64,000 bases of DNA from Amoebophrya sp. A120. Its lineage: Eukaryota; Protista; Dinoflagellata. Below are positions 1-61,374 of the stretch, in pieces. Location: contig CAJINV010000001.1 of assembly GCA_905178155.1 (NCBI GenBank), forward strand, positions 10,844,311-10,908,310, given 5' to 3'. Position 1 is the stretch's first letter. Each line of letters starts with the position of its first letter. The translations under genes and the position numbers were made by a program. The notes under the pieces are model-generated. The model was given only the letters and a program-made list of their open reading frames with translations. It was not told the origin of the DNA and ran no database searches.

Positions 1-784
1 ATGGTCAGAATGTAAGTATACGTAGACAGGTTCATCCTGATCCTCGCAGACTCACATCGCCGCGGGTGACGATACAAAATTACGATCGGAATTCGGAAAC
101 GACATATTCTTTATCGGAAGCAAAAGTGTTCCGATCTATGCCGCACATACTTAAACAACACGTAGAAGAAAAGGAACACAAGCTCAAAAAAAATCAAACG
201 CACAAGAAGGAAAATCAGAACTTCAAGCGGTGAACAGTAGACTCGATCTTGAGCCTCGCAAAGCAATCGGTGATGCATCAACCAAAAATCGTGTGCGGTC
301 GCACGCAAGAAAGCTCGGAATCACAGAAGTAAGATATGCGCTCATGAAGAAAATTTTTCCAGAATGGTGTTGCGCGGTTCTAACTGTGGCATATTACACT
401 AACCACTTACCACACTGGCTCACCTTGTACTCACGTTATTCCTGTTGACGGGCAAACAAATCATGGTCATTTTTATCTGATTTTCCCATCAGTCTAACCA
501 GATTTGGGAAGATCGGGATCGGCGCACTATTCATGTGCTCCCATCAGTATCTACAAGAATATTAGTGTTTTTCGTTTCCGCATTGCCGTACTGTACTCGC
601 TTCATGTTCATGGATAGGTCAGAATATTTTTGGTCCTCCTCGATAGATCAGAAGTGGTGGGCACAGACATTCGGAAGCCACGGCACATCGTCGTAGCGCG
701 ATTTGCTGTGTTTTGCGTTTCCCTTCACCCTTCATTTCCGCAGAGTCTTTCTCTCCCCCGCCCTTCTCCCTGCGATTCTTCAAG

Positions 785-2966: not shown

Positions 2967-5855
2967 ATGCTCAATACCAAGGCAGATAAACTTCTACTCA
3001 GCGTCTACGAGACCGCCCGTCTGCAGGGTGTTCCGGATGGCTGCGTTGGGTTAGCTGTGCGAGAAACGGTTGGTGTGCAGCGGTGTGTGGCTTTCAAGGG
3101 CTGCCCGGGTGTGATCGTCGCGCTCTGTGACTCCGCAGAAAGCGAGCGGGCGTTTGAGGCCAACTTGCACCGCAAACCCTGGAAAAAACTGACGAAGCGC
3201 GCAGCTAGTCTCCAGGTTGATCGGCAGCAGGTCGGGAAAACAGCTGGAGATAATCAACTCGACACGTGTGAGGTGATCCCGGCCTTGGATGACCGGAATC
3301 CCAGCGGCTACGGGAAAAAGATCAACGGTGAGAAACTGCAAGCAGTTTTGTTTGGGCAGCTTCTGGCAAAGGCCACCGGTGCAGCAAAAGCGTCCGTAGA
3401 GAAGCTGGCCAAGGATCTGCAGCCGCTGGTCGTTTCCGTTGGGGCAGACGGCGTGCTCGAGCCTTCGACTGTGGCAAGTTCCTCTGAAAATACTTCGAGT
3501 GAGAAAGCTTTCCAGCCGGCTTCTCGTGGGGCGCCTTCGAGCCCGATGCGAGGACCAGCCCCGGCGGTAGACGTTCTCTGCAACGATCCAGATGGCACAG
3601 CGGGACTGGCGGTGATGCGTGGGCTTGTTGCAAACGCGGACATTCCAAGCCTGGCGACGTCGTTGCTAGCGCACCCGAAGAAAATTCAGGCCGAATGCGG
3701 GGGCTTATGGAATAACAACCAGCCCGAGCCTCTGGGAATGCAGGGAAGAGTAGTTGCTGCGGTGGAAGGACTACCTCTGGAACAGTTCCCCGGTCTGCAC
3801 GGGCGTTTTCGCCTCGATGGAGCCAATGTTGGCGGTCGGACCGCCGATTTGCTCCCGTTGAACCCAAGTTTCGCCGACGTTTTGAAGAAGAACAGCCCAA
3901 ATCAACATGGTTCAGTCCCGGAAGTCTTAGCAGAGAAGCTGCGCCAGTTCCAAACGACGTCACTAGCCGTGTCTTGGGAGCAGGCGAACGGGCGCAAGTT
4001 GTCCCAGGAGCGCACCCTGTGCGGGTGGGCCTACGACGCCGATGCTGTCGATGGCACACCGGCCGTGTGGGTGAACCTCGGACGCGCGCCGGTTACCTGG
4101 GCTTTCAAAAGGCTGAAGAAAAACAACGCGGCCGATTTCACGATCACGCTTTCCCCGGGTGACGCAGCGATTCGCTGGGGGCAGAAGGCGAGGTGCGAAT
4201 GGTGCACTGCCTGTGTCGGGTTGGGAGATAGTGCGACAGAAAATGGAAAAAGGGAAGATGTTGCCAAGAAAGGCGTGCTCGATCTGATCAACGTGAAGCT
4301 GGAGGACCACCGCGCTCTTCGCTCCAAAAACGCCGCCTTGTTCGACAGGTTGCATCGGTCAGACGCGACGCTGACGCCCGATAAGTGGTTTCAGCTCGAG
4401 TTTGAACTTACGGAGAACACGACCACGACAAGCACGTCCGGCTTGGAAATTTCCGCGTTCTGGCCTGGGTCCAGGCCGGCTAAAAAATGCGTCGACGTTC
4501 AGGCTGCGGCTCCGGCTTCGAAGGCCGAAGTAAACTCCAAGCCCCGGTCGGGTAGATGGAACAAACGCAGAAAAACAGGTGACGAGGAGACTGACGCTGC
4601 GCCGACGGATGAACAGCCGGGTGCTCCTAGCTCTTTTGCAGCCGAGGAGAACAGGATATCACTGAAGTCTGCCGCACAGGTGCAAAGCGAGCAAATCGCA
4701 AAGAAGAATCCTCCACCGAAGGAGGATCAGAAACGCGGATCCGGCGCTGTCAGTATGAAATCCGCAGCCCGGGTCGCGGCCGAAAGTCTGTTTGCCGACC
4801 TGCAAACGCACATGGCGAACGACGACCTGATCAAGGGGTGGGAGGCACACCGCCGAACCTGCAACGGTAAGGCCCGTGGTCCCCTCCGCGCCGCCGCTCG
4901 GGACATTCGTCTGAAGGCACAGAAAGCCGCCGGGGAAACGTCTTTGGAATCTTCGACGTCAGGCGCCTACGTGGCGGCACTGCGGCTCTTGCACACGGAG
5001 CTGGCTCGCGCAGGCGAAGCCGACTTCGACGGACAGTTGCGGGATGGCGCTGCGTGGTTGGAAGAAAAACTAGCGAAGGTTGGAAGTGCGCAATCGGCAA
5101 ACAAGGACTTTGTGGAGAACGCCAACAACCCGCGTGAGGGTAGTACCAAGATAGCGGTTTCTGTGGACGAGTCGGTCGTGAAGAATATCCTATGTAAAAA
5201 CGTCCCTACACCAGAGTCAAGCTGGGGATCTCGCAACACAAATCGAGAAGTTTTGGGGGTCCAGCATGATAAGTTCGTCTCTGTATTGTAGTGTAGTTTA
5301 GCAAGCACAGCCGCAACACAAATCCATCTACTTATCCTGTCGACAGCATTACAAAGCGCAAAACGCGATTGGAAATGCCTCTCATGTGGATGCGCATATA
5401 GAAATCTTCCTGTAGCTGCAAATCTGCATGACAACTCTGGGCAAAGTGCGTCGCATTTCGTTTAGCATGACAACTCTGGGGTGGGTACATTTTTACTCAG
5501 GATAAAGAAAGATTATCCGAATCTGCTGGCGCGTTTGATGAAGCAAAGGGCCAGTGGGCACCGAGGAACGGCCTTCACTCGCGACTTGCGGCAAGCCACG
5601 CAGTGGGCGGATTCCTGTCGTGCGAGGTGGCAGAAGCTGCAAAACGACAGCGACCAGCAGCACAAGCAGAATCTCCAAAGTAGTTACCTCGACGCTGTGC
5701 AGCACTTGTGTGCTGAACTGGAAAAAGAAGGCGAGCCTGACTTCGACGGGCAGCTGCGGCGGGCCGTGAACTTTCTCCAGGGTACAAAGATGGAATACTT
5801 CCACCCAGGCCTCGAACCGGGGAAGAAGAAAACTACCAGGTCTTACATAGGCTAA
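2967..5855 (+). CDS. AlkB/2OG-Fe(II)-fold-like protein with duplicated C-terminal helical module; 2 exons (2967-5185, 5510-5855)
   Basis: ORFs 2940..5291 and 5481..5855 share a frame and join as SVVKKDYPNLL after removing 324 nt. GWAYDADAVDGTPAVWVNLG...LSPGDAAIRWG resembles the AlkB core. GEADFDGQLR / GEPDFDGQLR repeats lie on either side of the insertion. Confidence 0.65.
5186..5504. mobile_element. Family A TIR introner (A1)
   Basis: TIR TATCCTATGTAAAAACGTCCCTACACCAGAGT / ACTCTGGGGTGGGTACATTTTTACTCAGGATA; perfect TSD AAGAA (5181-5185, 5505-5509); GCATGACAACTCTGGG is duplicated near the right end; no GT-AG register. Confidence 0.92.
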
Positions 5856-22532: not shown

Positions 22533-25500
22533 ATGTTGTCTCGGCTGCTTGGAAAGTCCGGATCGAAGGCCCAGGTGAAACCTGTGGTCGTCGAGCAGCC
22601 TTCCGTGGGGATCAGTGCGAGCTCCGGTTCCCGCTCGAAACCGGAAATTGGGAAGTCGCCTGAAGCAGCGCAAAAGCTCAAGGACCAGATATCCGATCCC
22701 TCCTTTTCCGGCGCATCGCCCAAGACCATGACGGCGCAACAGGCCTGGACAGGTCCGTCCGACGGCGAGGCGATGCCAAGCAAGAGTGCACAAGCAGGAT
22801 CTGTGTCCCCTTCAACAGCGCACAAGCACCAGCCGCAAAACTACCCGCAGAGCAAAGCCGCTGCGAGCTCGTCGTCGTCTTCCCCGACCAACGCACAACA
22901 TCAGAGCAAAAGTCTGGGGACCACGACTCTGTTACAGCAACAGGAGGATCACGGCGGTGAGGCGTCGACGGTGAACAAGCGAAACAACAGCAACGGGCAA
23001 AGCAGCGCGGGCGGGAAGACAAGCACGACCGCCATCAGCAAAAAGGAACAGCAAGAGGTAGAGAATTCGAGTCATCCGAGCAAGATTCTGCCAACGGCGT
23101 CGACGTCGACGGCGCAGTCGTCAGTGCTGGCGGCCTACAACGCGGCGACCAGTCCCACCACGCCCCAGCTCCAGCGGCAAACCAATAGTCACATCAAGTC
23201 CCCGGGTCAACGTTCGCAGGAGTCGAAGCCCCCGTCTTCGAGTGGTGGCCCGGCGGGGCAAACAACGTCGCCGGGTACTAACAGGGAGCGCCGCTCGCGA
23301 CGGCTGTCGGACCCGCCGCCCGCTGGGGAAATGCTCGCTCGGCCCCGGACCGATCCGTGTTTGTCGACCAGCACAAACCGCAGCCATCGAACGGAGAATT
23401 CCCAAGTGCTCGCGAGCAGCGTCGAGTCTATCAGCATGGTGCACGGAGGGTCTGCGGGGGTCGACCCGCAAGCTGCGGGCAACTGGTTGGACCAGTGCGC
23501 GAGTGCGCCACAGCTCGGGAAGGGCATGTTGTTGTTTGGCGATGCTGGCATGCCGAAGAACCTGCACCAGGCCTGGGAAGGCGAAACGACCCGCTCTAGC
23601 ACGCGCTCGCCCGTGAACATGAGAGGGGTGCCCCGCGACGCCGTTCCCAAGCCCTCGGAAGTGATCCAAGAGTTACTGCAGGTGGAGGTGCTTCACGACA
23701 CGGAGTACTGCGTGACCCTCTGCTGCTGCTCCACCTTCGACCCTACGCCGCTGTACGAGGTGAAGTTCATTTCCTTATTCCCTTTTGCTTTATTTTCATA
23801 GAGCACAAGAATAACTTAACGGTTTTGGTCAAGCTTTACTGGTGGATCTTTTCGAGGCACTAAAGGACGTAACTACATTCTTGATCATCGTCAACGGGAA
23901 AAACCAGAGCGTGTAGTCTGGCTGTCTGCCTGTATCTGAGCGCATAATTTCATGTGAGATAAACGTGAACATCAATAGCGTTTCCCTGCGGTGACCTTCG
24001 TGCCAGAATTCACGACGGACGAGCACGCGGAGGCGTTGGCGAACAATTTGTTTGCGGAGGACTCGCAACTGCGGTGCTGTATCATCATTGCGTTCTTGAC
24101 TGACGAAGAAAATCCGGTCAACAATGACAGCATCCTCGTGTCCCGCTTGCTGAAGACATTTGACTGCTCCTCTTTCGTTCCGCCTATCCTTGTATATCAT
24201 CATGCTGTTGCTTTTGATCATGTAAGTATTCATCTGATTACCTTGTTGAGATGAGTCAATGACAATGTATGTCCTTGACGCTCATGGTGACCGATCATTC
24301 TCGTTTTGCTCACATGGGACGAGATGTTTTATCATATCTTTCAGGTATTGACACCGTACTTCGAAGACGGATTCGCCGGCATGAGTGAAATGGAGGCACA
24401 GCAACGCTATTCTACTGAAAAGCATTCCCACCGCAGAGTCAAAGTGTCAGCTCTGCTATACTTTTGTAGGTTGGAGGCATCCGATGCAGAACAAGTTTTG
24501 CGAGTACTATCGCGGCCTACGACATTGACATGAGTGGTTTTGATTCGCTGGCAAAGCCGCATTACAGAGCCACTTTCTTTCTAGTTGTCAGAGCATCGCC
24601 ATCGCAAATTCCTGAACGGCTGAGAGAGTTCCTTCCATGTACAGGGGCAACATCCATCGCGTCTGTCACTGCAATTACGTACCGTTTCGCATGACAAGCA
24701 TGGACTTCTGCGCGTGGACGTTTTTACGCAGGATCAGCGCTTGGTTGACCGCAGCAAAATCTTTGCTGGGTACGGGGCGGATGACTTTTTGTTTTGGAAA
24801 GTGAACAATTGGAATTCGTTGGCGACCCGCCGGAGCCGCAGCGCATCCCCCGCGGCCACGGACCAGCACCACCTCGCAACTGCGAGTAGCACTAAGACCG
24901 ATACGTCGAGAAACCGCACGGAAGGCAACAAGGAAAACGAGGCGCCAGGCACGACGAGCGGCGGGGAGAAGGAAAACCGCTCGACGTCTTCGAACTCCAA
25001 TGCGAGAGAGAACAAGGGTAAGCGAAGTACCAGAGACCACCAAATAAACGGTATCCTGCGTAAAAACGTCCCCACCCCAAAGTCAAACTGGAATCTCTGC
25101 AACACAAATCCCGAAGTTTATATTTGGTAGAAGTCACGCATGACAAGTTTCGGTGGTAGGCGGGTTTGTGGCAAGCAAAGCCGCCTCACAAAGACGCGAG
25201 CTTATCCTGTTCACAGCATAGCACGACCAGAAATGCCTCTCATGGGGATCGATTATCTGCATAAACAACTTTATTTGCTTTGATCTCTGTGAGCAGATTG
25301 ATTGGGGCGTTTTTCCTCAGGATACAAGGCGCGGATGTGGATGAAAGAGGACAAAGTGAAACGGAAAGTGCGATCCAGCAGAGCATGCGGCAAGTTCAGA
25401 CGCTACGGGAGCAGATTTTCGAGCTGCAGAGCCGGGAACTGGAACTGGACATCGAGACTTCCTTGGCCTGGATCAACCACAACTTGGAGACTATGCGGAA

Positions 25501-36225: not shown

Positions 36226-39200
36226 ATGGATTTTCCAGTAGAAGGAAGTACTCGAACTCGACGCAGGAAGGTCCCCCTCCTCTCCGCCCCATTTCTCTGG
36301 GGGAGCGCACAGCTTGCGGCGTACCTGGTCATCTCCCATGTCGTTACCTCATCCATCCCGGCGGCATCGTACTCGCTGCCGGTGCGCGTCGGCGATCTGG
36401 TTGCGGTCCGAGGGGTGCACGACGGCTCCCTGTTCGAGGTGATTGAAAAACAGGGGAAGGATTCCTGCACGGTGCAGTGCCTACACACGGACAAAGTGAA
36501 CACGGAGAACTGCCGGCTGTTGGAACCCGTGCGCCCTCTGTGGCGGCCCGCGGACGCGCACTGCCTCCGGCTGGAGAAGCCGGCGCCGACAAACGCCTAT
36601 TTTGACCCGCCTCCCGCGGCGGATCCGGATTCTGCGAACGAGGACGGGAGAGGACCACCCGACCATGGGGACGGTGCAGCGCACGTGGCACGGGTGGTGG
36701 CGGAGAGTGTCGCCCGGCCGCTGCAGGTCTGTCCGAGCAGCGCCACCAAGGACAGTATGAGGACGGATCGAGTGCTGAGCGCACTGGCCCGAGCGCACGC
36801 GGCCGACAAGGCTGAGGAGCAACGTAAAGCTGGAGGCGACGCGCCCGCGCCGGTCAGAAGTGGTGGTGGTGCTACTATCAAGGTCGTGGATACGCAGCTC
36901 TTTCGGACCATGAACGCACTATCCGCTGACATGCAGCGCCGGCTGGGGATTGCGACGAACGCCTTGATGTCGTCGCAGAGGTCAGGTGGTAGCTACGCCG
37001 GAGTTCTGGGGCCGCTGGGTATGGGACTGAACAAGCCGCGGGCCAAAAGCGAAGCCGAGATAATGAATGCGTGGCTCGATACGTATCTAGTGGCCGCCGT
37101 GGAGGAAGTGATGCAGCAGCAGGCCGCCGTTGAAGGAAGTGCGGTCGCTTCCGTGGCGGCGCTCAAGTGGGTCGAGTCTAGAGGGCGGGGAAGTGGATCA
37201 TCGCTACAAAGTTCGCGGGAGGAACATCAAGTGCAAGTGGACGCACTCGCACAGCTGGCGCGGACATCCCACGGAGCAGGCTCCGCGGGGACAACGCCGG
37301 GAGTCTCTGCGTCGCCGACGGGGCGAGTCGCAGCTGCCTTCGGGGTGATGCAAGCCCGCGCAGACAGGGAGCGGCGGACTACTGTCGACTTCCAGTCTAA
37401 TAGGTATCTACGCGTCTTTTTTTTGCGTTATTCGATGAATATCTACCTGCTACAACCTTTGCCGTTCTGCCGGGTCCGAGATTTATTTCTGATTTGACTT
37501 CCTCTGATCAACCATGTTGCATTCGCCTTGGCATAAACTACACTAAGTAAGCGCTGCGGTTGAACATGCGAAAGAAGTATTGACCATGCATAGAACCTTC
37601 ATCACTTTGATCGCACTAAAACAGATTTCACGAAACTCGCGCCCCTCTGCCAAACGAGGAATTATTTGCCGTCAAAAACTTGGAACGGCGGAAGGCGTGG
37701 GAATATGGACTTGAAGATTATATCGAGCGCGGAAGTGCCGTAGCGGGACATGACTCAGCCTTGACCGAACCACCACACGCTGCGAAAGTGCTAACGGTAT
37801 CTCCAAACTACGACGCAAACACTGGCGAGTTCAAGGGTGTCGGTCTCGCCTGGGTTCTTGCGAGAGAGAGTGGGCTACAACTACAACTGCCTGCCGCGGG
37901 CGGGGACGATCCTCGTGGAATTCTGTACAGGAACGCGCAATTGTGGGCGTTAGCGGAGTCTTCAAACCCGGCGAAACTGCCCTACGCGGTTGTCGACGAG
38001 GAGGAGGTATCAAATGTAAAAATGTCTGGGTCTGGAAGATTGCCAGGTTTGTCATGCACATTTTGCATGACTCCTGATGTCTGTGATGCATGCCGTAGCA
38101 TCACAGATTTTGTGAGGGCTTCCTGATGCCTATACCGCATGACAAATGCTCTTTCCGCGTAGCAAAACTTGGACTCTCTTTGCTGCTCATGCGATACAGA
38201 TTTTTTTAGAATCCAAAATCAGCATGACAAGTTGGATTCTTCCAGACCCAGACATTTTTACATTTGATAGGAGGTGGCGCGGCAGTTTGGCGCGGGCGCG
38301 GTGTCCCACTTTTTCAACAACGACCTCCGGCAGATGCGGGACCAGCGTCTCAGCTACGTCCAAACCGGGTACTGGAACCAGAATCGGGGAAGCGCCTCGC
38401 TGTTCCCACTGCTGATAGTGCTGATCGTGCTGGCCAGTCTGGGCATCCTGTTCCAGGTCTCGCTGCTCGTGCCCCTGGGAAAGGACCCGGAGGTGGATCC
38501 CGCCTGGATGCGGGAGGCCGCCTTGTGGGAGATGTGGCGTGCGGAAAATCCGGACGAGGAGTGCGAAAGCATCGCGGACGTGAAAAAGCGTCTGGAGGAA
38601 TTCAGATTCAAGCTCGAGAGCGAAAGCAAGGGAGTTGTACCAGACACGACGACCGCATCTACTTCTTCACATCTCGGAAACCCGTCGGAAGTGCAGCCGG
38701 TTGTTCCCAGTACGGCGCCGGTCGAAAAAAACCAGGTGGACGGGAACACCAGTCAGGAAAACCAGGAGGACTTCCCGGAGCTGCGGTCGGAGGAGGATTT
38801 TCTGCAGCCGAAGCTGTCCAACTTGAAGCCGTCTTCCAAGCGACAGCACGCACTGACGGCGGAGGAGAGCGAGTTTCTGGGCAAGCAGGTGGCGGCGTTC
38901 CTGGAGGATCAGGACGTCGAGGGGCGGTTCGAGCGCTCCAATTCGGGGACGACGGACTCGGAGCTGGGCGGGCACAAGGGGCTGGCGAAACAAAACGCCG
39001 TGAAGAATGCAACCGTCTGTGGGGACAAGGGGCAGGAGATGCGCGAGGCCGCGCTGAAGGCCGCGAGAGGCCGCCACGCCGGCATTTGGTGCGACCGCCG
39101 CAAGCGCCGGCCCTGGGCCAACCGGTGGGGCACCGGCGGTGGCTCGGATCATCAGCAGCCGGGAGTCGTCGTCCCGGGCTCCTCCCCGACGGGGTCGGCG

Positions 39201-42200
39201 ACCGAAAACAGCAATGGCGGGCTCCTGTCCGACTTCCACTCCGCGAACAAGAACCAGCAGGTATCCTGAGTAAAAACGTACCCACGCCAGAGTCGGGATG
39301 GGGATTTTGCAACACAAACCTAGGAGTTTTGTGAGTCACGCATGACAAGTTTCAGTCCGTAAGGTAGTGCAAGTTAGCAAGGAAAGCCGCATCACAAATC
39401 GATCTGCTGATCCTGTTTACAGCATTACAAGTTCCCAAACACGATTGAAAATGCCTGTCATGGGGTTGCGCATCACAAATGTTCCTGTCATGGCAAATCT
39501 GCATGACAACTCTGGTGTGGGTACGTTTTTACTCAGGATAACAGGTTACCAGCTACAAACCGGCCGGGCACGAGGTGCAGATCGCCTACGACCGTAACTA
39601 CCCGCCGGCGCTGGCCTACCCGCTGCCCGGGGACGACGACCTGTCTTGCTGGTCGGATTTTGGCGAAGAGTCTCCCAAGCGGAACAAGGCCCCCCGGTCG
39701 TCGACCGATAGCGACCAGCTGCATTTCACCGGCAGGTAAGTAATATGCATATACATTGGGCTGTTGTTCTAGTGTATGACTTTTGATGCTTTTCCACCAT
39801 CTTCAAGGGTCATTGTCCTTTGGAACTTACTAGATGATTGACATTCATGATCTTTCATGTCAGTCATTGTCCCATGTTGGAGTAGTTGACGCTGCTCCTG
39901 TTGTTGGTTGTCACTGGTCTTTGTCTTTCTAGAGCATTCATTGCTTGAAAGTCCCTACAATGCCATTCGTTACTGCATCAAAAATAAGTCGTTGGGGAGG
40001 TGCACTTCGGGCACACTTAGTCGCATCGAAAGATGACGCGCCACGCTTTTGTCATGTAGTTCATGTGAACCTCAGTAAAAAAAAAATCTAAACGAATTCA
40101 TTGACATGATCTTCAGGTCTTCGAATCATGTGGATTCCTGTGTGCCACTGTACTGCGGTTTTGGGGACCACGAAGACTCGCAGGAAATAGGCACGTCCAG
40201 CGCCAGCAGTGTGATGGCGGACTTTCATCGCGCCGGAAACAACGGAAACCTTAGCTCAAGCAGCAGCAGCGCGAAAGACCTGTTCTGGTCGGACTATCGG
40301 AACTCAAAACTACTGGTGAACAAGCGAGACGGCATATCCTGCGTAAAAACGATCCCAGTTATATGTAGTGAGGTCACCGAACGGTTCTAACCGGGGAGTT
40401 TTTTTGCCATGTCCCGTGAAAAACGACCGTCAGTTTTCAAGCGGTCGGAAGCGTTTTTTGACATAAAAAATTTTTAATTATCAAGCGGTCTGTGCTTTGC
40501 TGTCAAACAAGCCCGGTCGTAAACTATCGATTCGCACTTGATAAAACGACGCAGGGGAGCCGGCAAAAGGGGCGCCCTTCTGAGGCGCCCGCCGCCTTAG
40601 TTTCTGGCGATTTGGGGCGCCCAAAAAGGGGCGCGCAAAAAACGCGCCCAAAATCAGAACAGCGAAACAGCATGGCACGGCCGCGATTTCGGAGCATTTT
40701 GGACGGCCGCGAAAGCGGCCGCCTTTTCGCCGGTTTCAGAGCCTGGGAAGCTTTGCAAAAAGCGCCGGCGTGAAAAATAAAAACGCGAAAAAGAAAAAGC
40801 GGCCCGCACGCGCAAAGCCAATCCGCATGCTATGGGCCCGATTTTTCTTCGCTTTTTGGGCGCCCCCCGTGGCACCCGGATCGGCCCCATAGCATGGGGG
40901 CTGGCTTTCGGGAAGGAATTTCGGGAATTTGCCAAAATTTGCGATGTTTCCCAAGTGGCCGCCATACCGTGCGGCATAACGTTACTCGCGGTGGTATGGT
41001 GAGCCCATAAAAAGCAAAGCCGCGGCCAAGGCTGCGGTCGGCAAAAAAACGCCCACGACCTCACTACCCCCGCCCCGGCGGCTATATTTGGTACCCGATT
41101 GTCAACAACTACACGGATTTATATGCGCAAACAAACTCCCGGCGAGCTTTGCGGCTTGCTAACGCATGAGGACACGACACGAGCTGGATTTGTAGCATAG
41201 TCGTGTCCTGCTCCTGTAGCTAATCTGGCCGCATAACTACACATCCACGGCCTCATCCTGATATTGGAGTTGTACATTTGTACAAAGTTGCTGGTTCCAA
41301 ACAACTACAACATGTTGACTAGTACGAATAGACTAAAGAGCCGCAACAGAAACAAGCATGCGAGTATGTTGCTGCTTAAGTTAGGGCAAATGAGATTATA
41401 CATTATACATATGATATACGTCATGAAAAACCTTGGGCGGGGACGTTTTTGCTCAGGATACGGCACACGCGGGTCCGGTTCTGACGAATTGGAGCCTTTC
41501 CCTGAGGCGGACGAGGAGGACTTGGAAGATTTCCCCGACCTCGACGAAAATTCGGAGTGGGCGGACCCTGGGCAGGGCCCCGGGTACTCCGTCCGCGCGG
41601 TGGACCCGGCGGCGATCCACAGCGATCTGATTTTCTCCGGCCGAGAGCTTCCCGAGGACTGGCACCCGCCTGCGGGTCCGCCGTCGGCCGCGTATCATGA
41701 TGTGGAACGGGAGGGACGAGGTGGTGCTCCTGCTCGTGGGAACAAGCTGATGAGTGGGTCGTCCGACGAAATAGACGATGGCGAGCTGGAGGATTTTCCA
41801 GAAATGGAAGATTGCCCCGACAACGAACTAAACTTGTTTGCTCCTCCTGCGAACGGTTCGAATTTCGACGACCAGCCGGTGTCGTCGAGGAGGTTCCACA
41901 ACCTGAGCGGGTCGGACGACGCAAATTTGGAGGACTTTCCGGGGATGGAGGAAGAGGAATACGACCACCTGTGCGCCGGCCAACATCTCGCACGGGGCAA
42001 CAACCAGGAGCAACCGCTGTTGAACCAAGTTGGCGAGACGCAAAGTCAAGCGGCGGCTACTTCCGGGACAATCAGAAGTACGTTGAATAACAAAATGGAT
42101 GAAGAGGTCGATGACTCCGTGCTAGGTGATGCGAAAAATGGTCGCCGGGCGCCTCATTTGCAGCGCAGTCGCAGTTTCCCGCTGCCCCAGAGGAATCCTG

Positions 42201-44207
42201 GGGATAGTACGGACAGCGCGACATCAGCGGGGAAGCAGGATGATGAGCTGTACTTCCAGAGGTTCAACGAGCGCTGGAACAACGGTAAAAGCCAACAGAA
42301 GTTAGCTATGCCACCTCTGGCGCCCAGCCTGATGAGCCGAAATCTGCTACCGAAGTCCGGGTTAGACAACGAGCGCAGCGCGTCTACCATTCACGAATCG
42401 CACAGCTCTTTGGAGCAGTTTCCCGGTAGCGGCGTGGACAGCTTGCAGAAACGCGACGTGGCCGAACTGCCGTCCCCGATGGAAGACCGCAAAAACGTGG
42501 AAAGCCTGCCCGGGTCGCACGTGTACTCCGACCCGCCGGCGCTGCAGGAACGGGACAACATGTCCTTTGTCGTCGCAGACTACCATCAAGGAAGCTCCTC
42601 CTCGTTCGGGGGAAACCATAAAACGGACGTGAACCTCCAGTATGAAGACCATGACAACGGAATGAAGATGTTGCAGCAGCCCCGAGGAACGGACTGGGCC
42701 CACGTGCCGGCCAAGGATCTAGGCTTTGTGGCACAACAAGAGGAGCAACAAGTAGCCTCCACTCCTAGCACGGCGGGAGTTGTTGTTGGGCCTCAGAACA
42801 AAACACCAGTGGAAACACCAGTGGCTCCAAGTAGAACGCCGGCAGCAGCTGCTGCGGTGCCGCAAGTTCTAGTACAACAACATCTTCCCCAAACTACGAG
42901 CCGTAAGTACTCGAAGCCGCTGGAAACGGGCGCGGATCATGCTTTCGCGGAGAGATCTACCGACACCGGAGGGAGCGGGGGCCCTCGGACGAATAGCACC
43001 AGCACCTCCAACGGATCGCCCACCGGAGTCCGGGGGCACACGAACGAAGACGCCGTGTACGCGACTGCGAATCTTCCCCCGAAGCGCCGCCTGACGCGGT
43101 CCTATCAAATGTAAAAATGTCTGGGTCTGGAAGAATGCAACTTGTAGTGCGTATTTCAGAACACAGAAAAGTCTCTCATGCATACGTAGCAAAAGCTCCC
43201 ACTTTTTGCCAGCAAAATAGGGGACTTGTCATGCGGATTCGGCATTGCGGAAGGTTCTCGAAACCTGTGATGCTAGAGCTTCCATGCCAGACCTTCTCTG
43301 TCATGCAAAAACAGCATGACTCTTCCAGACCCAGACATTTTTACATTTGATAGGTCCATCAGCGACACCAATCTGTACGGCAGCGGAGCCGCTGCGGGGA
43401 AGGAATCCGAGAGGCGAACGAAGTGGAGGGATGCCAAACAAATGATCAAAACAGAGAAGGCCAAGAACGCGGTCAAGCAAGCGAATGCTGTCACGCACGT
43501 TGAAAATAAATGGAACGCCACCACCGTGCCGGCGTTGGAGACGTCGATGGTATGATTTAAGTACTATATTTGTACCGCTGAAATAAAGATGACGCGGGTA
43601 CTCATATAAGTAAGTCAAAGTTATGTAAAAAACTTCTAACACCGATGATCATGAACATGATTGCGTCTTCAAGAGCAGTGAAAGTTCTCCATTCTATTTG
43701 ACTTTCGTTCGTGACATCAACTCCGTATCATGCTAGCGGCACGTTCGACCCTGTTGAAAGCAAAAGGTGGAAACCCCAACCCCGCAACATACCGTCTCAC
43801 AAGGACGAGTTGCGTGTATTAAAAATAGGTGAACGTCGACTGAATAACATTAATAAACCAAATGAAACTTCTATATACAGGTGCAGCAAGAGTACTCGAA
43901 CCGCGAGGCGGGGCTGGAGAACGACAAGCTGCGACACGCTGCAGGTCTCGATACGGACTCGGACAACTTTGATTGTCGAACGGACAGCACGGAGGAGGAC
44001 GACGTTTCGGACCGGAGCAGCCTGATGTACTACCAGCAGGCCCGGTACCATCGGTTCGGCCACAGTGGCGAAAGCGGGGATTGGCACTACAGCGAGGGCG
44101 GGCCCTACGGGGAACGCGCCCGCAAGGCCTTCGTCATGTCCCTTGTGACAGAGAAGACAGAAGAGCTCTACGAGATTCTCGACCGTTGTGGCATCCACGT
44201 GCGGTAA
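36226..44207 (+). CDS. Large hypothetical membrane protein with acidic LEDFP repeats; 7 introns, 4 of them TIR introners
   Basis: Exons 36226-37403, 37625-38006, 38274-39260, 39545-39735, 40117-40334, 41466-43098, 43354-43549 and 43881-44207 all join in frame. Hydrophobic N-terminal segment, a TM helix (LFPLLIVLIVLASLGILF) and four (E/N/D)LE(D/P)FP repeats at 41487-41945. Confidence 0.75.
38008..38269. mobile_element. Family B TIR introner (B1), GT-AG intron 38007-38273
   Basis: Perfect TIR TATCAAATGTAAAAATGTCTGGGTCTGGAAG / CTTCCAGACCCAGACATTTTTACATTTGATA; TSD GGAGG; removal gives VDEEEVARQFG. Confidence 0.95.
39262..39540. mobile_element. Family A TIR introner (A3), GT-AG intron 39261-39544
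   Basis: TATCCTGAGTAAAAACGTACCCACGCCAGAGT / ACTCTGGTGTGGGTACGTTTTTACTCAGGATA; TSD GCAGG/ACAGG; interior homologous to A1. Confidence 0.93.
40335..41460. mobile_element. Family A-type introner (A5, 1126 bp) carrying a nested family F element
   Basis: TATCCTGCGTAAAAACG...GGGCGGGGACGTTTTTGCTCAGGATA; perfect TSD CGGCA; removing 1131 nt gives KRDGTRGSGSDEL. Confidence 0.9.
40361..41067. mobile_element. Family F element (short copy) nested in the left TIR of A5
   Basis: ATAT-GTAGTGAGGTC...GACCTCACTAC ends; 40361-40540 is homologous to 54357-54537, and 40541 onward to 55888 onward. Confidence 0.82.
43103..43352. mobile_element. Family B TIR introner (B2), GT-AG intron 43099-43353
   Basis: Perfect 31-bp family B TIR; TSD GGTCC; near-identical to 47811-48061; removal gives RLTRSISDTNLY. 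Confidence 0.95.
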
Positions 44208-44895
44208 AAGAAAAGTTTGGGAGTAGTTCTCACTCGAGATTTGTCTTCCGTCTTGCGGGGAATGATATAAGTAAGTACTTACTTCCCTAGCTGCCTGCTC
44301 TTCTTCTAGGGCTATTAATTATATCTTCCGTGTCGAATGAGTAAAATACGCTGGTGGAATAAAGAAAACTGAAAGCAGCACGGTTCTCGGTACGCCTGTA
44401 CAGCGCTCTGCGAAATGTCTATGATAAAATTCGACCTCTATGTCGCGAATTATAATCAACATCTAGAGAAGGGCAAGCCGCGAACTTTTGTAAACACCTA
44501 TCCAACGACTTATAAGTACTTGAAGGAGATGAAATATGGTGATAGCGATAATTTCTAGATGTACTGCGAAACAATGTAGTATCCTAAGCGACGCGCGACC
44601 CGGGTGCTAGTAGAACCTCCTCCAGATAAGACTCGAACCACTTAGGGAAGCACTTTCGTAGTTTATTACGATAGGGAGTAAAGTTGAAAGAACTTGGATC
44701 AGTAGCTCCTGGTATAAACAAACGATCAAACGACTTCTTCATTTGATGGTGCCAAAAAAATGTACCTGACTGTAAAAAATAAAATTTGTACAACGAGTGA
44801 TAAGTATGAAACCTCCGATGCTGGCAAGACCCTCGTCGTAAATAGTCATTTTTGGAACGATGTTGTTTCTGTAATTCATTTTGGCTCCTCAAGGT

Positions 44896-44936
44896 CCGGT
44901 CGACGAGACCGGTTTGAAACCGGTTTCGTCGACCGG
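44896..44936. repeat. Near-perfect 41-bp palindrome
   Basis: CCGGTCGACGAGACCGGTTT-G-AAACCGGTTTCGTCGACCGG; 19 of 20 arm positions are complementary. Confidence 0.85.
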
Positions 44937-45436
44937 TTTGTTGCCGTAGATTTTTCAAGGATTGTTGCGTTTATTTTTCGTTGTACTCTTGATTGTCATC
45001 CCTTCTCTGAGTCAGCGTTTGAAAGTGCGTTGCTTTGGCACCACGAGCCATTGGCGTGCCCATGTTTTCTTGACTTTCGTTTTGCCGTTATCTTGTTGAG
45101 CGCGATCAGCGTTGTGGAGTCGTCCCGATGCTATCTTCTTTGTTTTCCCAAATCTTTCGAGAGACAGCTGCAACAGTCGTTGCTCTAGCAGGAGTGGCGA
45201 GTGCAGTGGTTCGCTTCTTCAAAATTGCTGCTGCTGTTTCAAAGACTTGATAATCGCGGCGAATACGCGAGTGCGGAAATGCGGAGAGAAAAGATGAGCG
45301 GATCAAAATGAACTGTTTTTTCTGCAGATCAAACGTGGTCTGAGCTTGAGCAGTACTGGCGCAAGGAGAGGAGAAGCAGAAAGAAAATATTTAGCACTTC
45401 CCCGGACGACGGAGGGAAACAAAATAGTAGAAAAAA

Positions 45437-46774
45437 ATGACGGAAACTATCGCAACACGCCCCGCGCCGGTGGGTTCCTCCACCGTGGCGTCAACTGAGC
45501 AGGCATCATCCTCCAGCAAGAACACAGCCGTCGTTGCAGACGCAGAGGCACTGCGGAAGAAGCGGGTTCTGGAACTCTGCATGAACTTTGTCCAGCTCCT
45601 CCGAAGAAGACGGTTCAGTTTTTTTGTTGCGCATACAGTAGTTTTCGTTTCGCATACAGTTTCGCGGCTGGGCGAGAACAAACATGCAAAAGGGGGCGCA
45701 TGACTCGAGACAGAAGTTCTTTCACTTTTAAAGACAAAGAAGGTTCTTGCCGCGTGTACTTCTGGATGACCATCTTGTTGTCGCGGAAGAATCCCTGTGT
45801 TTCGTAGTGTTGTCGAGCGTGTAAGTACTTCCAATCAAACGACTAAGGTTCAAGCCCGCGTTGGAGATGGCTGGGGAGATTTTAAAGTTAGAGCCAAACC
45901 ATCCGCAAGTGGTTATCCTGAGTAAAAACGTCCCCACCCCATAGTTGTCATGCAGATTTGCGATTACAGGAAGATTTGCAATGCGCATCTCCATGAGCGG
46001 CATTTCCAATCGCATTTTGGAATTTGTAATGCTGTAAACGCGATGAACAGATGGATTTGTGATGCGGCTGCACTTGCTAAACTGCACTACAGGACGGACT
46101 GGAATTTGTTATGTGTTGCTCCCAAAGCTTCTGGGTTTGTGTTGCTAAGTTCCCAAGTTGACTATGGGGTGGGGACGTTTTTACATATGATAGTGGTACA
46201 GCACCTGGACATGCTGGAGGAATTGGCAGCGTCGTCTTCGGAGTCCGACGCGGGTTCCAGTTCCTCCTCCTCGTCCGATTCCGAGGAGGACGAGCCCGAG
46301 CTTCACTACGTGGCCACTCAGCAGTTCAACCCACAAGACTATCAACATGAATTGAAGTAGTGTCCCCACCACCGGCCCACATGGCAAAGTTTTCAAATAA
46401 AGACTTTTGGTCCGCGTCTTGCACGTTTCTTTGAGCGAAGACTATCTCTGCTTCAGATTCATCTAGGTGCGCGAAGCAGCTCCTACATGACAAGTCCCCG
46501 CCCCGGTGCTGCGCCGTTCGGCAACATAGACACTCGCTAATATTCTTGCTTGCAAGAAATGTGTCATGCTGATAAAAAATGCCAGGTCGTGGCAAGTGTT
46601 TTCATAATTGGGAACTGTTGCAATGCAAACATTTTCCCTTTCATCTGGGGTGGGGGCGCCTTTCAATTTGATAAAGACGGGGAAGCTGGCTCCACCCGCC
46701 CGCCCTCGGTCGGCGGGGCGGCGTCGGATACAGGGACCGCACCCTCGGAGTATCCCGTGCGGCGCCTCGACTAG
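45437..46774 (+). CDS. Small ERICH2-like (TPR-like helix pair plus acidic Ser-rich tail) protein; 3 introns
   Basis: Exons 45437-45612, 45848-45913, 46198-46339 and 46679-46774 give NFVQLLRRRRFKPALEMAGEILKLEPNHPQVVQHLDMLEELAASSSESD...NPQDGEAGS. The ERICH2 resemblance is from memory. Confidence 0.65.
45914..46192 (-). mobile_element. Family A TIR introner (A4), inverted relative to A1/A3
   Basis: TATCCTGAGTAAAAACGTCCCCACCCCATAG...CTATGGGGTGGGGACGTTTTTACATATGATA; perfect TSD GTGGT; interior is the reverse complement of the A1/A3 interior. Confidence 0.92.
46340..46673. mobile_element. TIR introner with A/B-hybrid termini
   Basis: TATCAACATGAATTGAAGTAGTGTCCCCACCACC...CTGGGGTGGGGGCGCCTTTCAATTTGATA; perfect TSD AAGAC; removing 339 nt keeps the frame. 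Confidence 0.85.
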
Positions 46775-47216
46775 TTTTTGTGAGAAACAATCTGGATCAC
46801 AACTTCATTCGAAATTTTTACCAAATTGTGGCTCCCTCGCGTGCAGCCACACGTGAACTTCTCGACAGGCGAGATGCATATTATCGAAATGAAGAGAACT
46901 GATTTGAACACGCAGTGCCTCGCTGTAGCATCGAACAAATTTTTTGCTGATCAAGAAGCTACTGTTCCGACATCTCAGCATTACCTTCTCTCTCCTTTCG
47001 GTCTTCGCGCACGATTTCGATTGCATTCTTGCACTGCTGCGTGTTGTCTGTAGCATCGACGCATCGTCTGCTTTTCCGATTGATTGTTTTGATGGAGAAT
47101 TTCCGTGCAGAAGCAGCTTTTGCACCAAGAGAAAAGAAGCAGCGTTTCGATCAAGAAAAAAAAGCAGCTTTTACATTCAACAAGAAAGAAACAGATTTGA
47201 CCTCAAAGAAATCAGC

Positions 47217-48823
47217 ATGGTGTACACCGGCACCCCAAAGATTTTTCTGTACGGCGACAGCTTGACGTATCACGAGAAAAAAGTGTTACAGTTACACAGT
47301 AAAGTGCAAGCCCAGCATGACAGGCAACCTCTGTCATGCCAGAAATGCTTCTGAGGTTCATTTCATACGTGTTTTCCCTTATGGTCTGCGCATTGCAAGT
47401 TTTCCCTCTCATGCAGAGAAAATTTGTGTTGCTGAAGGTACAACAAATGTGTATCTGTAACACTTTTTTCTTGTGATATGACGCAGTACGGGTCTAGTGA
47501 GGTTGGCGGGTGGGCGGCCCGCCTCCAAGGCCTTTACAGTCGCCGCGCCGATGTTGTGAATCGTGGCTTATCGGGCTGGAATAGCCGCTGGGCGCGCGAA
47601 TACGTCGATGGTGTGGTCTCGCGCGACCTCGGTAACGACAAGTGCATGTTTGCGAGTGTGTGGCTCGGCGCGAACGACGCCTGGCTGCCGTCCGCGACCG
47701 CGGGGGGTAACAAAGGCAGCCGGTATGCGGTTGGTGTGGAAGACTTCAATGCGAATCTGTCTTACATAGCGAGGTGTTTGCTTGACAAGACGGATCTGGT
47801 CTTCGTTCTCTATCAAATGCAAAAATGTCTGGGTCTGGAAGAATGCAACTTGAAATGCGTATTTCAGAACACAGAGAAGTCTCTCATGCATATGTAGCAA
47901 AAGCTCCCCACTTTCTGTCAGCAAAATAGGGGACTTGTCATGCTGATTCGGCATTGCGGAAGCTTCTCGAACTCTGTGATGCTAGAGCTTCCATGCCAGA
48001 CCTTCTGTGTCATGCAAAAACAGCATGACTCTTCCAGACCCAGACATTTTTACATTTGATATTCTCACCCCACCTCCCATCGCGGAAGACCGGCGCAGGG
48101 CGTACGCCCTCCAGCTATACAACGAATATGTTTGCGATCGCGAGCTATGCATATGGTAAAATATGTCGTGGTGGTCTGGAAAGTTATAAATGCAATTTTG
48201 GGAATTATGATCAGATTACATCAGATTGGCGCACTGCAATACGTGGCCGAGCATGACAAGTGTTGCAAAGGTTTTAATGGCGACGGTGCAAAGGTTTTTG
48301 ATGAGGTGCAGTCGGGTATGCGTGAAAAGTGTTGCCATGTGTTGCGCATTCGGCATGGCAGACTGCATTTCTGCATGACAGGCAAGACGATTTTTTCGTG
48401 GCTATGCATTACAGAGTTCAGAGCCATGCCCGACGAGCATGGCAAACCTTCCACTCTTTCAGACCCAGACATCATATTTGCACTGGATACGAAAACGCGC
48501 ACACAGGAAAATACCGGGACGAAGTGAAGAAGGTCGTCGACAGCCTCAGCCAGGCGATAACTGTACGTGGCGAGAGCAAGCGAGTCGTCCTAGTGGACGT
48601 GTATGAACTGTTTTGGTCGCGCAGAGAGGACTTGCTACCTGACGGCCTCCATCTCGGCGAGGAGGCAAATACGATCCTGTTTGGCCACCTGAGTTCCCTT
48701 CTACACACCGAGGGTCTGGGCGTTGTCGCAGATCCGGTACGGGGACACACGGGGTGCAGTGCGGCGAAGAGCTCCCTGCCGAATCCGCTCCCTTGGCACG
48801 ACGACACAGCGCAACTGAGATGA
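47217..48823 (+). CDS. IAH1: Isoamyl acetate-hydrolysing esterase-like SGNH/GDSL hydrolase; 3 introner introns
   Basis: Reconstructed KIFLYGDSLTQYG, RRADVVNRGLSGWNSRW, VWLGANDA, VFVLTPPPI, DRENAHTGKY, LPDGLHL. Exons 47217-47267, 47484-47810, 48067-48143, 48493-48823. Confidence 0.9.
47268..47478. mobile_element. Family C TIR introner inserted in the GDSLTQ catalytic block
   Basis: TIR TATCACGAGAAAAAAGTGTTACAG / CTGTAACACTTTTTTCTTGTGATA; perfect TSD TGACG; internal GCATGACAG..CTGTCATGC. Confidence 0.93.
47811..48061. mobile_element. Family B TIR introner (B3), no GT-AG register
   Basis: Family B TIRs; perfect TSD TTCTC; removing 256 nt restores VLTPPPI. Confidence 0.95.
48146..48489. mobile_element. 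Degenerate family B introner
   Basis: TATGCATATGGTAAAATATGTCGTGGTGGTCTGGAAAG...CTTTCAGACCCAGACATCATATTTGCACTGGATA; TSD CGAGC/CGAAA; removing 349 nt gives YVCDRENAHTGKY. Confidence 0.78.
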
Positions 48824-49368: not shown

Positions 49369-50411
49369 ATGTCTTCCGGTTGTCCTGCGAGCAAGAAATT
49401 TCAAGTTCTGTGCCTGCACGGCCACGCCCAGACAGCGGAGGCGTTTCGGGGTCGTATCGGTTCCATACGCTCGCCGCTGAAGAAGTGGTGCGATTTCCAC
49501 TTTCTAGACGGCCCCTTTGAGGTCCCTCCGTGCGCGCATTCCGCCGAGCCGGCGCGCAGCTGGATGCAAGTGAGCCCGGACACGGCGCCGAATGTTGACC
49601 CGAAGACAGTTTTCGAGTCTTGGCAGACGAGTCTGGAGTTCATTGATAGAATCATCGCTGAGAAGCAGATCGACGCTTTGCTGGGGTTCAGCCTGGGGGC
49701 GGCGATGTCGCTCGGGGTGATGCTCAACGACATCGCAACTGTGAGTCGAGGAACAAACGAAGGACCCGAAACAGCATCTTCAAGATATAAGTTCGTCGCC
49801 CTCTTCGCTGGGTTCATCCCCTTCAAAAACCCCGAGCTGGAGCACATCTTGCGAGCGAAACTGAGAGAAGTTGGATATCGTAGGGGAAAATCCTCCCTCC
49901 CCATATCGAAAAGATATGTCTCAGAAAATTTGTAATGCTGATTTGTGTCCACAAATCGTCTCTGTCTTGCAAGAACGCAACTCCACTGGCTCCGCCGCAT
50001 TCTGCAGGCGGTTTGTGATGCTGTTGGCCCTACAGACTAGACGTTTGCCATGCTCAGCGCCTGGCCCAAAACGTCGCTACTCAGTCTGAGTACACTACGC
50101 ATAGGCCTGCAGTCCTCTCCAGCACGACAGGCCTGATTTGTGTACGCAAATCCAGCGTCAGAAACTTCGCGGCGATATGGGAAGGGGGGATTGTTCCTTT
50201 TGGTATCGGAAGCTCCAGGCTTCCGCCAAGTTTTCACTGTTACGGGATGGACGACCATATTATTCTTGCAGAGCACAGTGAGGAGGTCGCCACTTTTTTT
50301 CCCGATGCCTGCGTCTTTACTCACCCAGGGGGGCACTTGGTGCCCTCCCAAGCAAAAAATCCGCTGCGCGATTTCGTGCAGCTACTAAGCGAAAAATCGC
50401 AGGCGCCCTGA
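49369..50411 (+). CDS. FSH1/OVCA2-family serine hydrolase; exons 49369-49875, 50211-50411
   Basis: VLCLHGHAQT, FLDGPF, LLGFSLGA (nucleophile), then PSFHCYGMDDHII and HPGGHLVP (Asp, His) after removing a 335-nt insertion. Confidence 0.9.
49876..50205. mobile_element. Family E TIR introner
   Basis: Imperfect ~33-bp TIR TATCGTAGGGGAAAATCCTCCCTCCCCATATCG / CGATATGGGAAGGGGGGATTGTTCCTTTTGGTA; TSD TTGGA/TCGGA. Confidence 0.85.
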
Positions 50412-59863: not shown

Positions 59864-61374
59864 CATCCTGAGCAAAAACACCCCCGCCCCAGAGTCCCAG
59901 CGAGAAGCACGGCGCGGATTCGGTTACCAAATCCAAAAAGAAGCAAGGGCGCGCGCATTTTGTGGGCTCCATAGATAGCATGCGGAGAAGATTCCAGCCG
60001 CCTCCCAATGCCGACCATGGCGCGGCGGACGGCTACCAAAAAGCTTCGGACAATGCAAACTCTTGCGATTTCAGTAGTGTGCTGGTGCGCAGACAAGCGG
60101 CCGGCAGGGTGCTCCATAGATGGGCAGCGCCCCTCTTCGTTTTGTCGACGTTGACAGAGGAACTCCGCCAGTTCCTTGGCTATTAGACCGTTACACGACC
60201 AGCAACCGAGCGCAGAGGCTCGGGCGGGCTGAACGCGTTGCGCCTTGTGTGTAGAGTGGGGCCAGGTCGTGACTCCGGTCCTTTTTAGTTGCGTTCAGTC
60301 CCTGCGCGCTCCTTGGAGACTGCGCTTCTTGAAACACGGGCCAGGTGCTGTCAGGCTTGGCTCTAAATCAGGCCACTTTCCTTGTGATCGTCGCCGTCGG
60401 ATGTAAGTCGTTGGGCGGCATGGGCACCTAGATTCGTTGCGATTCTTCGCCAGTTCGTGTGGTTTGGAATGATTTCGCGGGCCGCCGGGCTCGATTTCTT
60501 GATCTGCCTTGCATTGGCTAAAAACGGCGAGCCCCGAGGGCGCCATGGCTGCCCCCGGGGTTCCGCAAATTATGCCAATCCCCCTGGTATGGCCCCCCTC
60601 GCATGATCAGCCAGAACCCGCGGGGCCGAGCGACCGTAGCAGCGCCATGCCGCCGGGAGTTGGGCCCCCTGTCGCCCTCGGGGGGCCCCTAGCGTGCGGC
60701 CTCGGGCGCGCCCTTTTTCATTTTGCGAAAGCAGGCAGCTTCATGGGCCAGAAGATAACTAACAGCGAACCCCGGCGCCACGGCCGCCCTCTGGGTTCCG
60801 GCCGGCTGGCAATTATGCACATCCGCATGCTATTGCCCCCCGTGCTGTATCACACACCCATACCCCGCCGGGCCTTGGCCGCGCCATACCAACCTTCCGG
60901 ACTGAAGTCCCCTCCCTTCCTCGAGGGAGGCCCATGGTGTGCGGCTTCGGGCGCGTTTTTTCTTTTTTGCGAAGGCCGGCAGCCTCGAGGGCTGGCATAA
61001 TTCGCGGGGCCCCTTGCGTGGCCAGGCCGCCGGGGCTCGCAGTCCATTTTCTAAGCACTCAAGAAATTGGCGAAGATGAAGATCTCAACTGTCAGAAAAA
61101 GCGAAGGGGGCGCGGCACTATGACGCACCCCGGCCGACCGATTGTCTGCGACCGAGCGTGCCAGAATGCCACTGCAGTCGGAAGGATTTGCATCGCTTCA
61201 AGCTTTTCAGTAACCGCCGCGCCATTGTCGGAATAAATTGGGCAACGGCTGTCATTCTAATCCGCATGCCATGAGGGCCACAAATTGCGCGCATTCTTTT
61301 TTTGGATTTGGTAACCAGGCCGACGCCAATCCCCTCGACGCAGCTCTGGGGCGGGGCTGTTTTTGCTCAGGATA
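59864..61374. mobile_element. 1.5-kb element with family A-type tips and ~110-bp TIRs, containing a nested inverted-repeat unit (~60509-61062)
   Basis: CATCCTGAGCAAAAACACCCCCGCCCCAGAG...GGTTACCAAATCCAAAAAG pairs with TTTTTGGATTTGGTAACC...CTCTGGGGCGGGGCTGTTTTTGCTCAGGATA; no clear TSD. Confidence 0.8.

Follow-up and report, generated by a model that had tools for sequence, protein, structure and literature searches.

The A4 element and its host gene

The window, meaning the whole 64,000-nt stretch of DNA analysed here, comes from Amoebophrya, and two of its genes match proteins labelled Amoebophrya sp. A120 at 100% identity. One plus-strand gene is interrupted by a short element, A4, that is bounded by terminal inverted repeats (TIRs) and a target site duplication (TSD). 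The features of A4 and of its host gene are as follows.

45909..45913, unstranded: left TSD copy, GTGGT (from the sequence)
45914..45945, unstranded: left TIR of A4, 32 nt, starting with TAT and with an A-run at positions 11-15 (the two ends are 91% complementary)
45914..46192, minus strand: A4, an introner of the Amoebophrya A120 type, non-autonomous and bounded by TIRs, 279 nt, facing opposite to A1, A2 and A3 (alignments and contig joint)
46161..46192, unstranded: right TIR of A4, with three mismatches near its end, ending with ATA (from the sequence)
46193..46197, unstranded: right TSD copy, GTGGT (from the sequence)
45913..46196, plus strand: likely true intron at A4, 284 nt, TT...GG (length from RNA contigs, register inferred from the element at 48146-48489)
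45352..45611, plus strand: host exon 1, in which the CDS starts at 45437; the 235-nt GT-AG intron after it fixes the strand (contig)
45847..45907, plus strand: host exon 2, 61 nt, upstream of A4, in leftmost-joint coordinates (contig)
46192..46334, plus strand: host exon 3, 143 nt, downstream of A4, in leftmost-joint coordinates (contig)
46340..46673, unstranded: second non-GT-AG element of the host gene, with an AAGAC duplication and a degenerate TIR, 339 nt removed (contig)
46674..46939, plus strand: host exon 4, completing a 159-aa product identical to P0001 (contig and protein match)

A preliminary description of this DNA had proposed that A4 is the reverse complement of the interior of A1 and A3, and alignment agrees: A4 matches the reverse complement of A3 (39262-39540) at 81% (E 3e-74) and that of A1 (5186-5504) at 79% (E 1e-59). 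With 35 nt of TIR trimmed off each end beforehand, the interior of A4 scored 214 against A3 and 190 against A1 when the two were set in opposite orientations, compared with 20 and 18 when they were set alike; shuffles reached 22 at most. The GTGGT duplication described earlier is indeed perfect, with both copies in place, and the assignment of the host gene to the plus strand is secured by the GT-AG intron within the same contig. Excision of A4 with one TSD copy (284 nt) restores HPQVVQHLDMLEEL, as had been claimed, and yields the product P0001; with A4 kept in, the host protein ends at 90 of 159 aa. The 284-nt removal can be placed in seven registers (AG-AT, GT-TA, TG-AG, GG-GT, GT-TG, TT-GG and TA-GT), and neither GT-AG, as already noted in that description, nor GC-AG, the ends by which a U2-type intron would be recognised, occurs in any of the seven. 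The GT-AG and GC-AG pairs near A4 would take out 272-297 nt, never 284, and the only such pair to leave the frame intact, with 293 nt taken out, would cost three codons.

The A4 joint, 45907>46192 with a skip of 284 nt, was found in a single contig of run X3 and a single contig of run X5; the two runs represent one sample, which is taken to be RNA by a guess. Upstream of A4 the same contig also leaves out the GT-AG intron, and downstream it leaves out the non-canonical 339-nt element, which was overlooked in the preliminary description. The host exons sum exactly to the length of the contig (260+61+143+266 = 730), so nothing is inserted at the joints. Joining of the RNA-defined exons predicts a protein of 159 aa that is 100% identical to P0001, a public protein labelled Amoebophrya sp. 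A120 in which A4 is already handled as an intron, and six homologues, those aligned out of 11 other matches, run gap-free across the A4 joint. Contigs of the DNA-like run X1, possibly the window's own source and as such not independent of it, contain A4 in place and cross both of its junctions at a depth of 43-45. Twelve runs were listed and six mapped, with X10 and X12 contributing 145 and 7 reads from this organism; X8 and X9 (share 0.05) were left out. The joint table that included X1, in which no empty-site DNA joint was seen, was swamped by other copies. Transcript evidence at A4 consists of contigs, as the raw reads (X10, X11 and X12) do not reach the host gene. No circle-type joint, one that goes back, was present among the joints at A4, and poly(A) and contig data are not expected to reveal one.

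The host protein (P0001, 45437-46774) combines a short helical core with a tail that is acidic and rich in serine. A Pfam search with it returned no family above the cut-off (a single match, E 0.07); the protein may resemble ERICH2. The host gene is present in X3 and X5, with none of it in X11. Between the upstream gene and the host gene lies a 41-nt near-perfect palindrome (44896-44936).

A4 is an introner of the kind known from Amoebophrya A120 (Farhat 2021, PMC7789003). As described in the text of that paper, A120 introners have inverted repeats that start with TAT, 7 nt and an A-run, 3-5 nt direct repeats, non-canonical ends, a predicted hairpin and a mean length of about 240 nt (PMC7789003). 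A4 shares the organism label and these traits: both ends read TAT, 7 nt and at least three A, GTGGT is repeated over the two exon/intron borders, and the element is missing at non-GT-AG ends from the X3 and X5 contigs (one sample, with RNA guessed). TIRs here reach 32 nt, whereas 8-20 nt were reported (PMC7789003). The same source states that more than 60% of A120 introns are non-canonical, finds 'no clear signature' and leaves the splicing mechanism open; nearly all spliceosomal proteins are described as present and U1 snRNA as undetected, and no transposase is reported (PMC7789003). The family to which A4 belongs also has the character of a miniature inverted-repeat element (MITE) or non-autonomous TIR transposon, with TIRs, a constant TSD length, short copies and independent insertions in both directions.

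Related elements in the window and the position of the cut

Further elements with similar ends lie in the window.

39262..39540, plus strand: A3, forward family-A copy, with an imperfect duplication GCAGG/ACAGG and an in-register GT-AG; removed in 50 raw reads
5186..5504, plus strand: A1, forward family-A copy whose precise removal restores a frame (DNA evidence)
25052..25324, plus strand: A2, diverged forward family-A copy with a GT-AG register available (DNA evidence)
38008..38269, minus strand: family B copy, reverse to those at 43103 and 47811, with a GT-AG register; removed in 65 raw reads
43103..43352, plus strand: family B forward copy with a GT-AG register available; removed in 70 raw reads
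47811..48061, plus strand: family B forward copy without a GT-AG register; the lengths of the contig pieces imply its removal
40335..41460, unstranded: 1126-nt element with family-A TIRs, a different interior and no GT-AG register; 64 raw reads skip 1131 nt here
47268..47478, unstranded: family D element with a TGACG duplication and no GT-AG register; skipped in one X3 contig
48146..48489, unstranded: element with an imperfect duplication CGAGC/CGAAA; register 48145-48493 (CT...AA, 349 nt), from contig pieces

A strict scan for TIRs with a TSD, which demanded TA(T/C) ends, returned 12 matches in the window and 1 in 40 shuffles. A loose scan (14 of 25 matches) was dropped, having given 32 matches in the window against 32-45 in shuffles. 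Twelve introns are supported by RNA, nine by joints within 37700-47000 and three read off one contig. All nine RNA-supported TIR elements start with TAT and end with ATA, with variable stems, and every one of the six RNA-supported introns that lack a GT-AG register is a TAT...ATA element with a 5-bp duplication. The three RNA-supported introns without TIRs are all GT-AG, with no obvious pyrimidine tract. In run X11 no reads fall at the sampled positions within A3 and the elements at 38008, 40335 and 43103, and their flanks have tens of reads.

Family A is thus removed in both orientations, as the preliminary description had held, with the reverse copy A4 skipped in contigs and the forward copy A3 in raw reads. 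Its comparators A1 and A3 are opposite to A4 in orientation, but both are weak as non-canonical controls, with an in-register GT-AG at A3 and a GT-AG gene model at A1. The host gene of A1 matches an A120 gene model at 100%, and that public model, P0002, places a GT-AG intron at 5178-5507, 6 nt wider than the precise removal of A1, with a product two codons shorter. The homologues P0003 and P0004 are diverged at the joint, where 324 and 330 nt both fit, and the GT-AG pair of P0002 is either a forced annotation or a real alternative. A search for homologues of the gene containing A2 gave none at E 1e-30. Family B also occurs in both orientations, and its reverse copy is GT-AG compatible. By the RNA of the window alone, no family is removed non-canonically in both orientations; the window by itself is weak evidence on this point because A3 has a GT-AG register and the joint of A1 is ambiguous.

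The position of the cut is hidden at A4 because its duplication is perfect. It can be read at the element at 48146-48489, whose duplication is imperfect. Record 13 of X3 has one piece that ends at 47805 and another that starts at 48494, with 83 nt of the contig between them, and these pieces are predicted by only one register, in which the cuts fall 1 nt ahead of TAT and 4 nt past ATA; this case is one contig, with its middle piece inferred from lengths. The same register, 48145-48493, also gives a continuous GDSL-hydrolase frame. Applied elsewhere, the 1/4 register yields GT-AG at A3 and at 38008, and the element at 43103 fits GT-AG in another register as well. All nine predominant non-canonical pairs of A120 in Table S4 begin with N-T (PMC7789003), a comparison in which the authors' placement of ambiguous joints may differ from ours. 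The ends of A4 are therefore likely TT-GG (45913-46196), by a register inferred from the one imperfect-duplication element; so placed, the intron would start TTATCC... and end ...GATAGTGG, with T as the next exon base. The 3' dinucleotide appears free, with 14 different pairs in 38 copies of the larger sample described below.

The fixed register indicated here differs from the account of A120 introners, in which the legend of Fig. 3 describes splicing at variable positions with respect to the hairpin (PMC7789003). We found no statement on element orientation or on a fixed register for Amoebophrya in the passages of text and supplement of that paper that were searched or in the open literature searched. 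The two-way behaviour and the fixed register of the Amoebophrya elements are apparently unreported, though the figures of PMC7789003 may show the register.

Several other features of these elements were recorded. A1 carries a sub-terminal duplication of about 40 nt, and the 1.1-kb element at 40335-41460, with its family-A ends, is removed as precisely as the 280-nt elements. The interior of that long element resembles 54354-54526 and 55884-55989, and a stretch 93% identical to it lies in locus L034 (1800-2531). A 1.5-kb element at 59864-61374 has family-A ends, an inverted repeat of about 290 nt at 70% and no duplication, and adjoins a GGGCA tandem array; the longest frames in the two long A-type elements of the window are 154 and 165 codons, the latter at 59864-61374. 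A further TIR element with a near-perfect duplication lies at 49876-50205 and has relatives of 71-77% identity that flank loci L011 and L030. The family-A copy at 24406-24734 is degenerate, its ends eroded and a duplication not evident, and it aligns in the orientation of A1-A3. Reads of X11 over 38614-44377 contain a mixture of changes, both C>T and G>A (at 42719, C>T in 50/82 reads), which may reflect allele, strain or editing.

Orientation in a larger sample of copies

The family is repeated at unrelated sites, with A1, A2, A3 and A4 in the window and 51 further copies recovered by a two-TIR pattern search, all of them in assembly JACKZZ01. These copies are selected by pattern, come from one assembly and provide DNA evidence only; the pattern itself dictates TIR positions 1-17, and these were excluded as evidence of conservation. 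Identity of the copies to A4 ranges from 67 to 84% and reaches 96% to A3, and the duplications are perfect in 42 copies and have one mismatch in seven. The host strand was called by codon use, with 11 uncertain loci left out. A caller of this type was correct for 22/22 held-out chunks of the window, all window genes being taken as plus, and it agrees in strand with all eight Pfam matches, which cover only 8 of the 51 loci.

The 40 confident copies are nearly evenly split, 22 of them facing forward and 18 in reverse (p = 0.64), and both orientations are intermixed over the tree of copies. The larger sample agrees with the removal in both directions that the preliminary description put forward, and copies of both kinds restore frames: precise removal did so in 9 of 12 forward copies (p = 0.004) and in all 8 reverse copies (p = 1.5e-4), counting copies callable on both sides and with p against one third. 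The remaining three of the 12 callable forward copies do not have their frame restored. The same test, applied to RNA-supported joints of the window, was correct for 7/8.

Two more copies were left out for poor duplications, leaving 38 for register counts. A GT-AG register is available in 3/21 forward and 0/17 reverse copies, so that 35/38 are without one. An apparent excess of GT-AG in the window (3/8, p = 0.002) was not upheld in this sample (3/38, p = 0.15), and 'canonicalisation' was dropped as an idea. Individual loci agree with removal of reverse copies that have no GT-AG. At L046 such a copy splits a UDP-glucose dehydrogenase into residues 206-223 and 225-252, with exactly one codon between, and at L049 another splits a 14-3-3 protein collinearly (profile 1-26 and 30-91). 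A forward copy without GT-AG, L029, interrupts CobW.

Signals for removal

Orientation independence takes the interior of the element off the list of needed signals. The earlier suggestion that strand-specific interior signals are unlikely to explain removal thus stands insofar as they are not needed, given removal in both orientations, but a branch point or T-tract may still play a part, with a T-run in the TIR and, in 26/40 copies (16/18 reverse and 10/22 forward), a TGAC placed 28-50 nt from the 3' end. In A4, A3, A1, 38008 and 47811 this motif falls between -34 and -45; that of A4, at -34, is a candidate branch site. The companion suggestion, that the symmetric TIR is the shared signal, survives in part. 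The symmetric ends are likely the removal signal, but orientation does not separate a hairpin from a sequence motif: any signal with this symmetry, sequence or structure, would allow removal both ways, so a hairpin mechanism is not shown by orientation alone. Orientation independence shows the symmetry of the signal and not its nature.

In the reading that we somewhat favour, A4, a backward A120-type introner, would be removed by a divergent spliceosome, which would use symmetric ends and not GT-AG. The element would have been inserted by a cut-and-paste transposase provided in trans. Cutting at fixed places, 1 nt ahead of the terminal TAT and 4 nt beyond the terminal ATA, would then take out the element with one duplication, and the first T of TAT would supply U at +2 of the 5' splice site in any target and either orientation. 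Pairing of TIR with TIR would join the ends and place a sequence-free 3' cut by distance. The same signals would be read in either orientation because both ends begin with TAT and the T-run is inside the TIR.

In-silico end pairing was 0.70-0.99 in seven TIR elements versus 0.07-0.37 in three introns without TIRs. On the transcribed strand, TIR mismatches had no excess of G-U over A-C (3 vs 5 forward, 4 vs 7 reverse), and thus no selection on RNA pairing was detected. The element at 46340 is removed precisely despite having its first 9 nt unpaired in the predicted fold, and that at 48146 is cut precisely although its ends match weakly; both speak against a pure hairpin ruler. Covariation between the TIR ends (positions 19 and 25) was considered as evidence of RNA structure and discounted, as subfamily descent explains it.

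Similar elements have been described elsewhere. In Polarella glacialis, introner-like elements are TIR/TSD DNA transposons that make introns either way, some of them using TSD bases as splice sites, and two-orientation introners are also known from Aureococcus as cited in the same paper (10.1101/2020.10.14.339549). The Polarella elements described there have GT/GC/GA-AG sites and need suitable targets, whereas 35/38 copies here lack GT-AG, and Polarella classes 6, 8 and 10 are said to be biased to one orientation, in contrast to 22:18 here (10.1101/2020.10.14.339549). Introns of Fritillaria borealis resemble A4 in being derived from TIR/TSD elements (MITEs) and mostly non-GT-AG, and have species-specific positions; they are reported as U2-spliceosomal, with AG-AC and AG-AT dominant and a divergent U2AF, unlike the N-T start and free 3' dinucleotide inferred here (PMC11282704; 10.1101/2025.08.15.670264). 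Nonconventional introns of euglenids, for which a MITE origin is proposed, are likewise non-GT-AG with paired termini, TSD-like repeats and fixed spacers; they differ in having CAG/CTG with spacers of 3 and 5-6 nt, a purine exon start and circles, compared with TAT/ATA and 1 and 4 nt here (PMC12501133, PMC11282704). The euglenid CAG/CTG motif (+4..6, -8..-6, with a purine exon start) is absent from A4 in the inferred register, the only one compared.

A rival reading, after the pattern of the euglenid introns, is a removal that is not spliceosomal but guided by structure, in which the TIR stem would be measured, the cuts would fall at the 1-nt and 4-nt spacers and a circle would perhaps be released. 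The fixed asymmetric spacers near paired ends do recall the Euglena N3CDG...CHG N5-6 arrangement (PMC12501133), U1 snRNA went undetected in A120 (PMC7789003), the 3' dinucleotide is as free as the pairs counted above indicate, and long stems are predicted. Degenerate stems are nevertheless still precisely cut. A U at +2 is expected of spliceosomal chemistry, and the inferred register keeps one while giving GT-AG at A3 and 38008. The TIR-derived non-canonical introns of Fritillaria, moreover, are reported to be spliceosomal, and we consider a euglenid-like route unlikely.

We hold it equally improbable that the spliceosome or an adaptor protein reads terminal motifs (TAT, the T-run and a TGAC-type branch site), with TIR pairing incidental. 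Such reading would agree with the constancy of the TAT and ATA ends over varying stems, with the placement of TGAC in five window elements and 26 copies, and with the lack of G-U bias in TIR mismatches. TGAC, however, is missing from 12/22 forward copies and from the elements at 47268 and 46340, and TIR positions 5-8 vary between families. A canonical-looking T-run and CAG, 4 nt inside the 3' end of A3, also go unused, which fits burial in a stem.

A hairpin with a direct repeat is the classic setting for template switching, all libraries here are cDNA or of unknown type, and the RNA and DNA runs come from different samples. It is nonetheless very improbable that the joints are artefacts of reverse-transcriptase switching or of an RNA strain lacking the elements in its DNA, given the absence of X11 reads at the sampled positions of four elements, a 48145-48493 joint without shared letters for switching, X1 contigs with A4 in place, own-locus contig pieces with no other letters, a host protein that is truncated by A4 retention, and conserved enzymes that need the removal.

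A4 is thus genuine and belongs to a system that is already known, and two of its properties, two-way removal and a fixed register, have apparently gone unreported. The surprise is limited, as the element class and the two-way introners of other algae are already known. If genome-wide, the fixed 1/4 register would turn 'no clear signature' into a simple rule, in which the +2 U comes from the TIR and the sequence-free 3' site lies at a fixed distance. Such a rule, if true, would explain the tolerance of tens of thousands of exon insertions, and it can be checked with existing genome and RNA-seq data through copies with imperfect duplications. More tentatively, any TAT...ATA inverted-repeat insertion of 180-1130 nt, either way round, might be cut at 1 nt ahead of the repeat and 4 nt beyond it with no target-sequence requirement, whether by a U1-less spliceosome for which the repeat sets both sites or by a separate machine. 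If this were true, it would amount to a target-free splicing code that made such exon insertions nearly neutral.

The GT-AG introns without TIRs at 39733-40113, 43549-43879 and 45612-45846 have direct repeats of 5, 3 and 6 nt at their joints, and some of these introns may be old introners whose TIRs have decayed.
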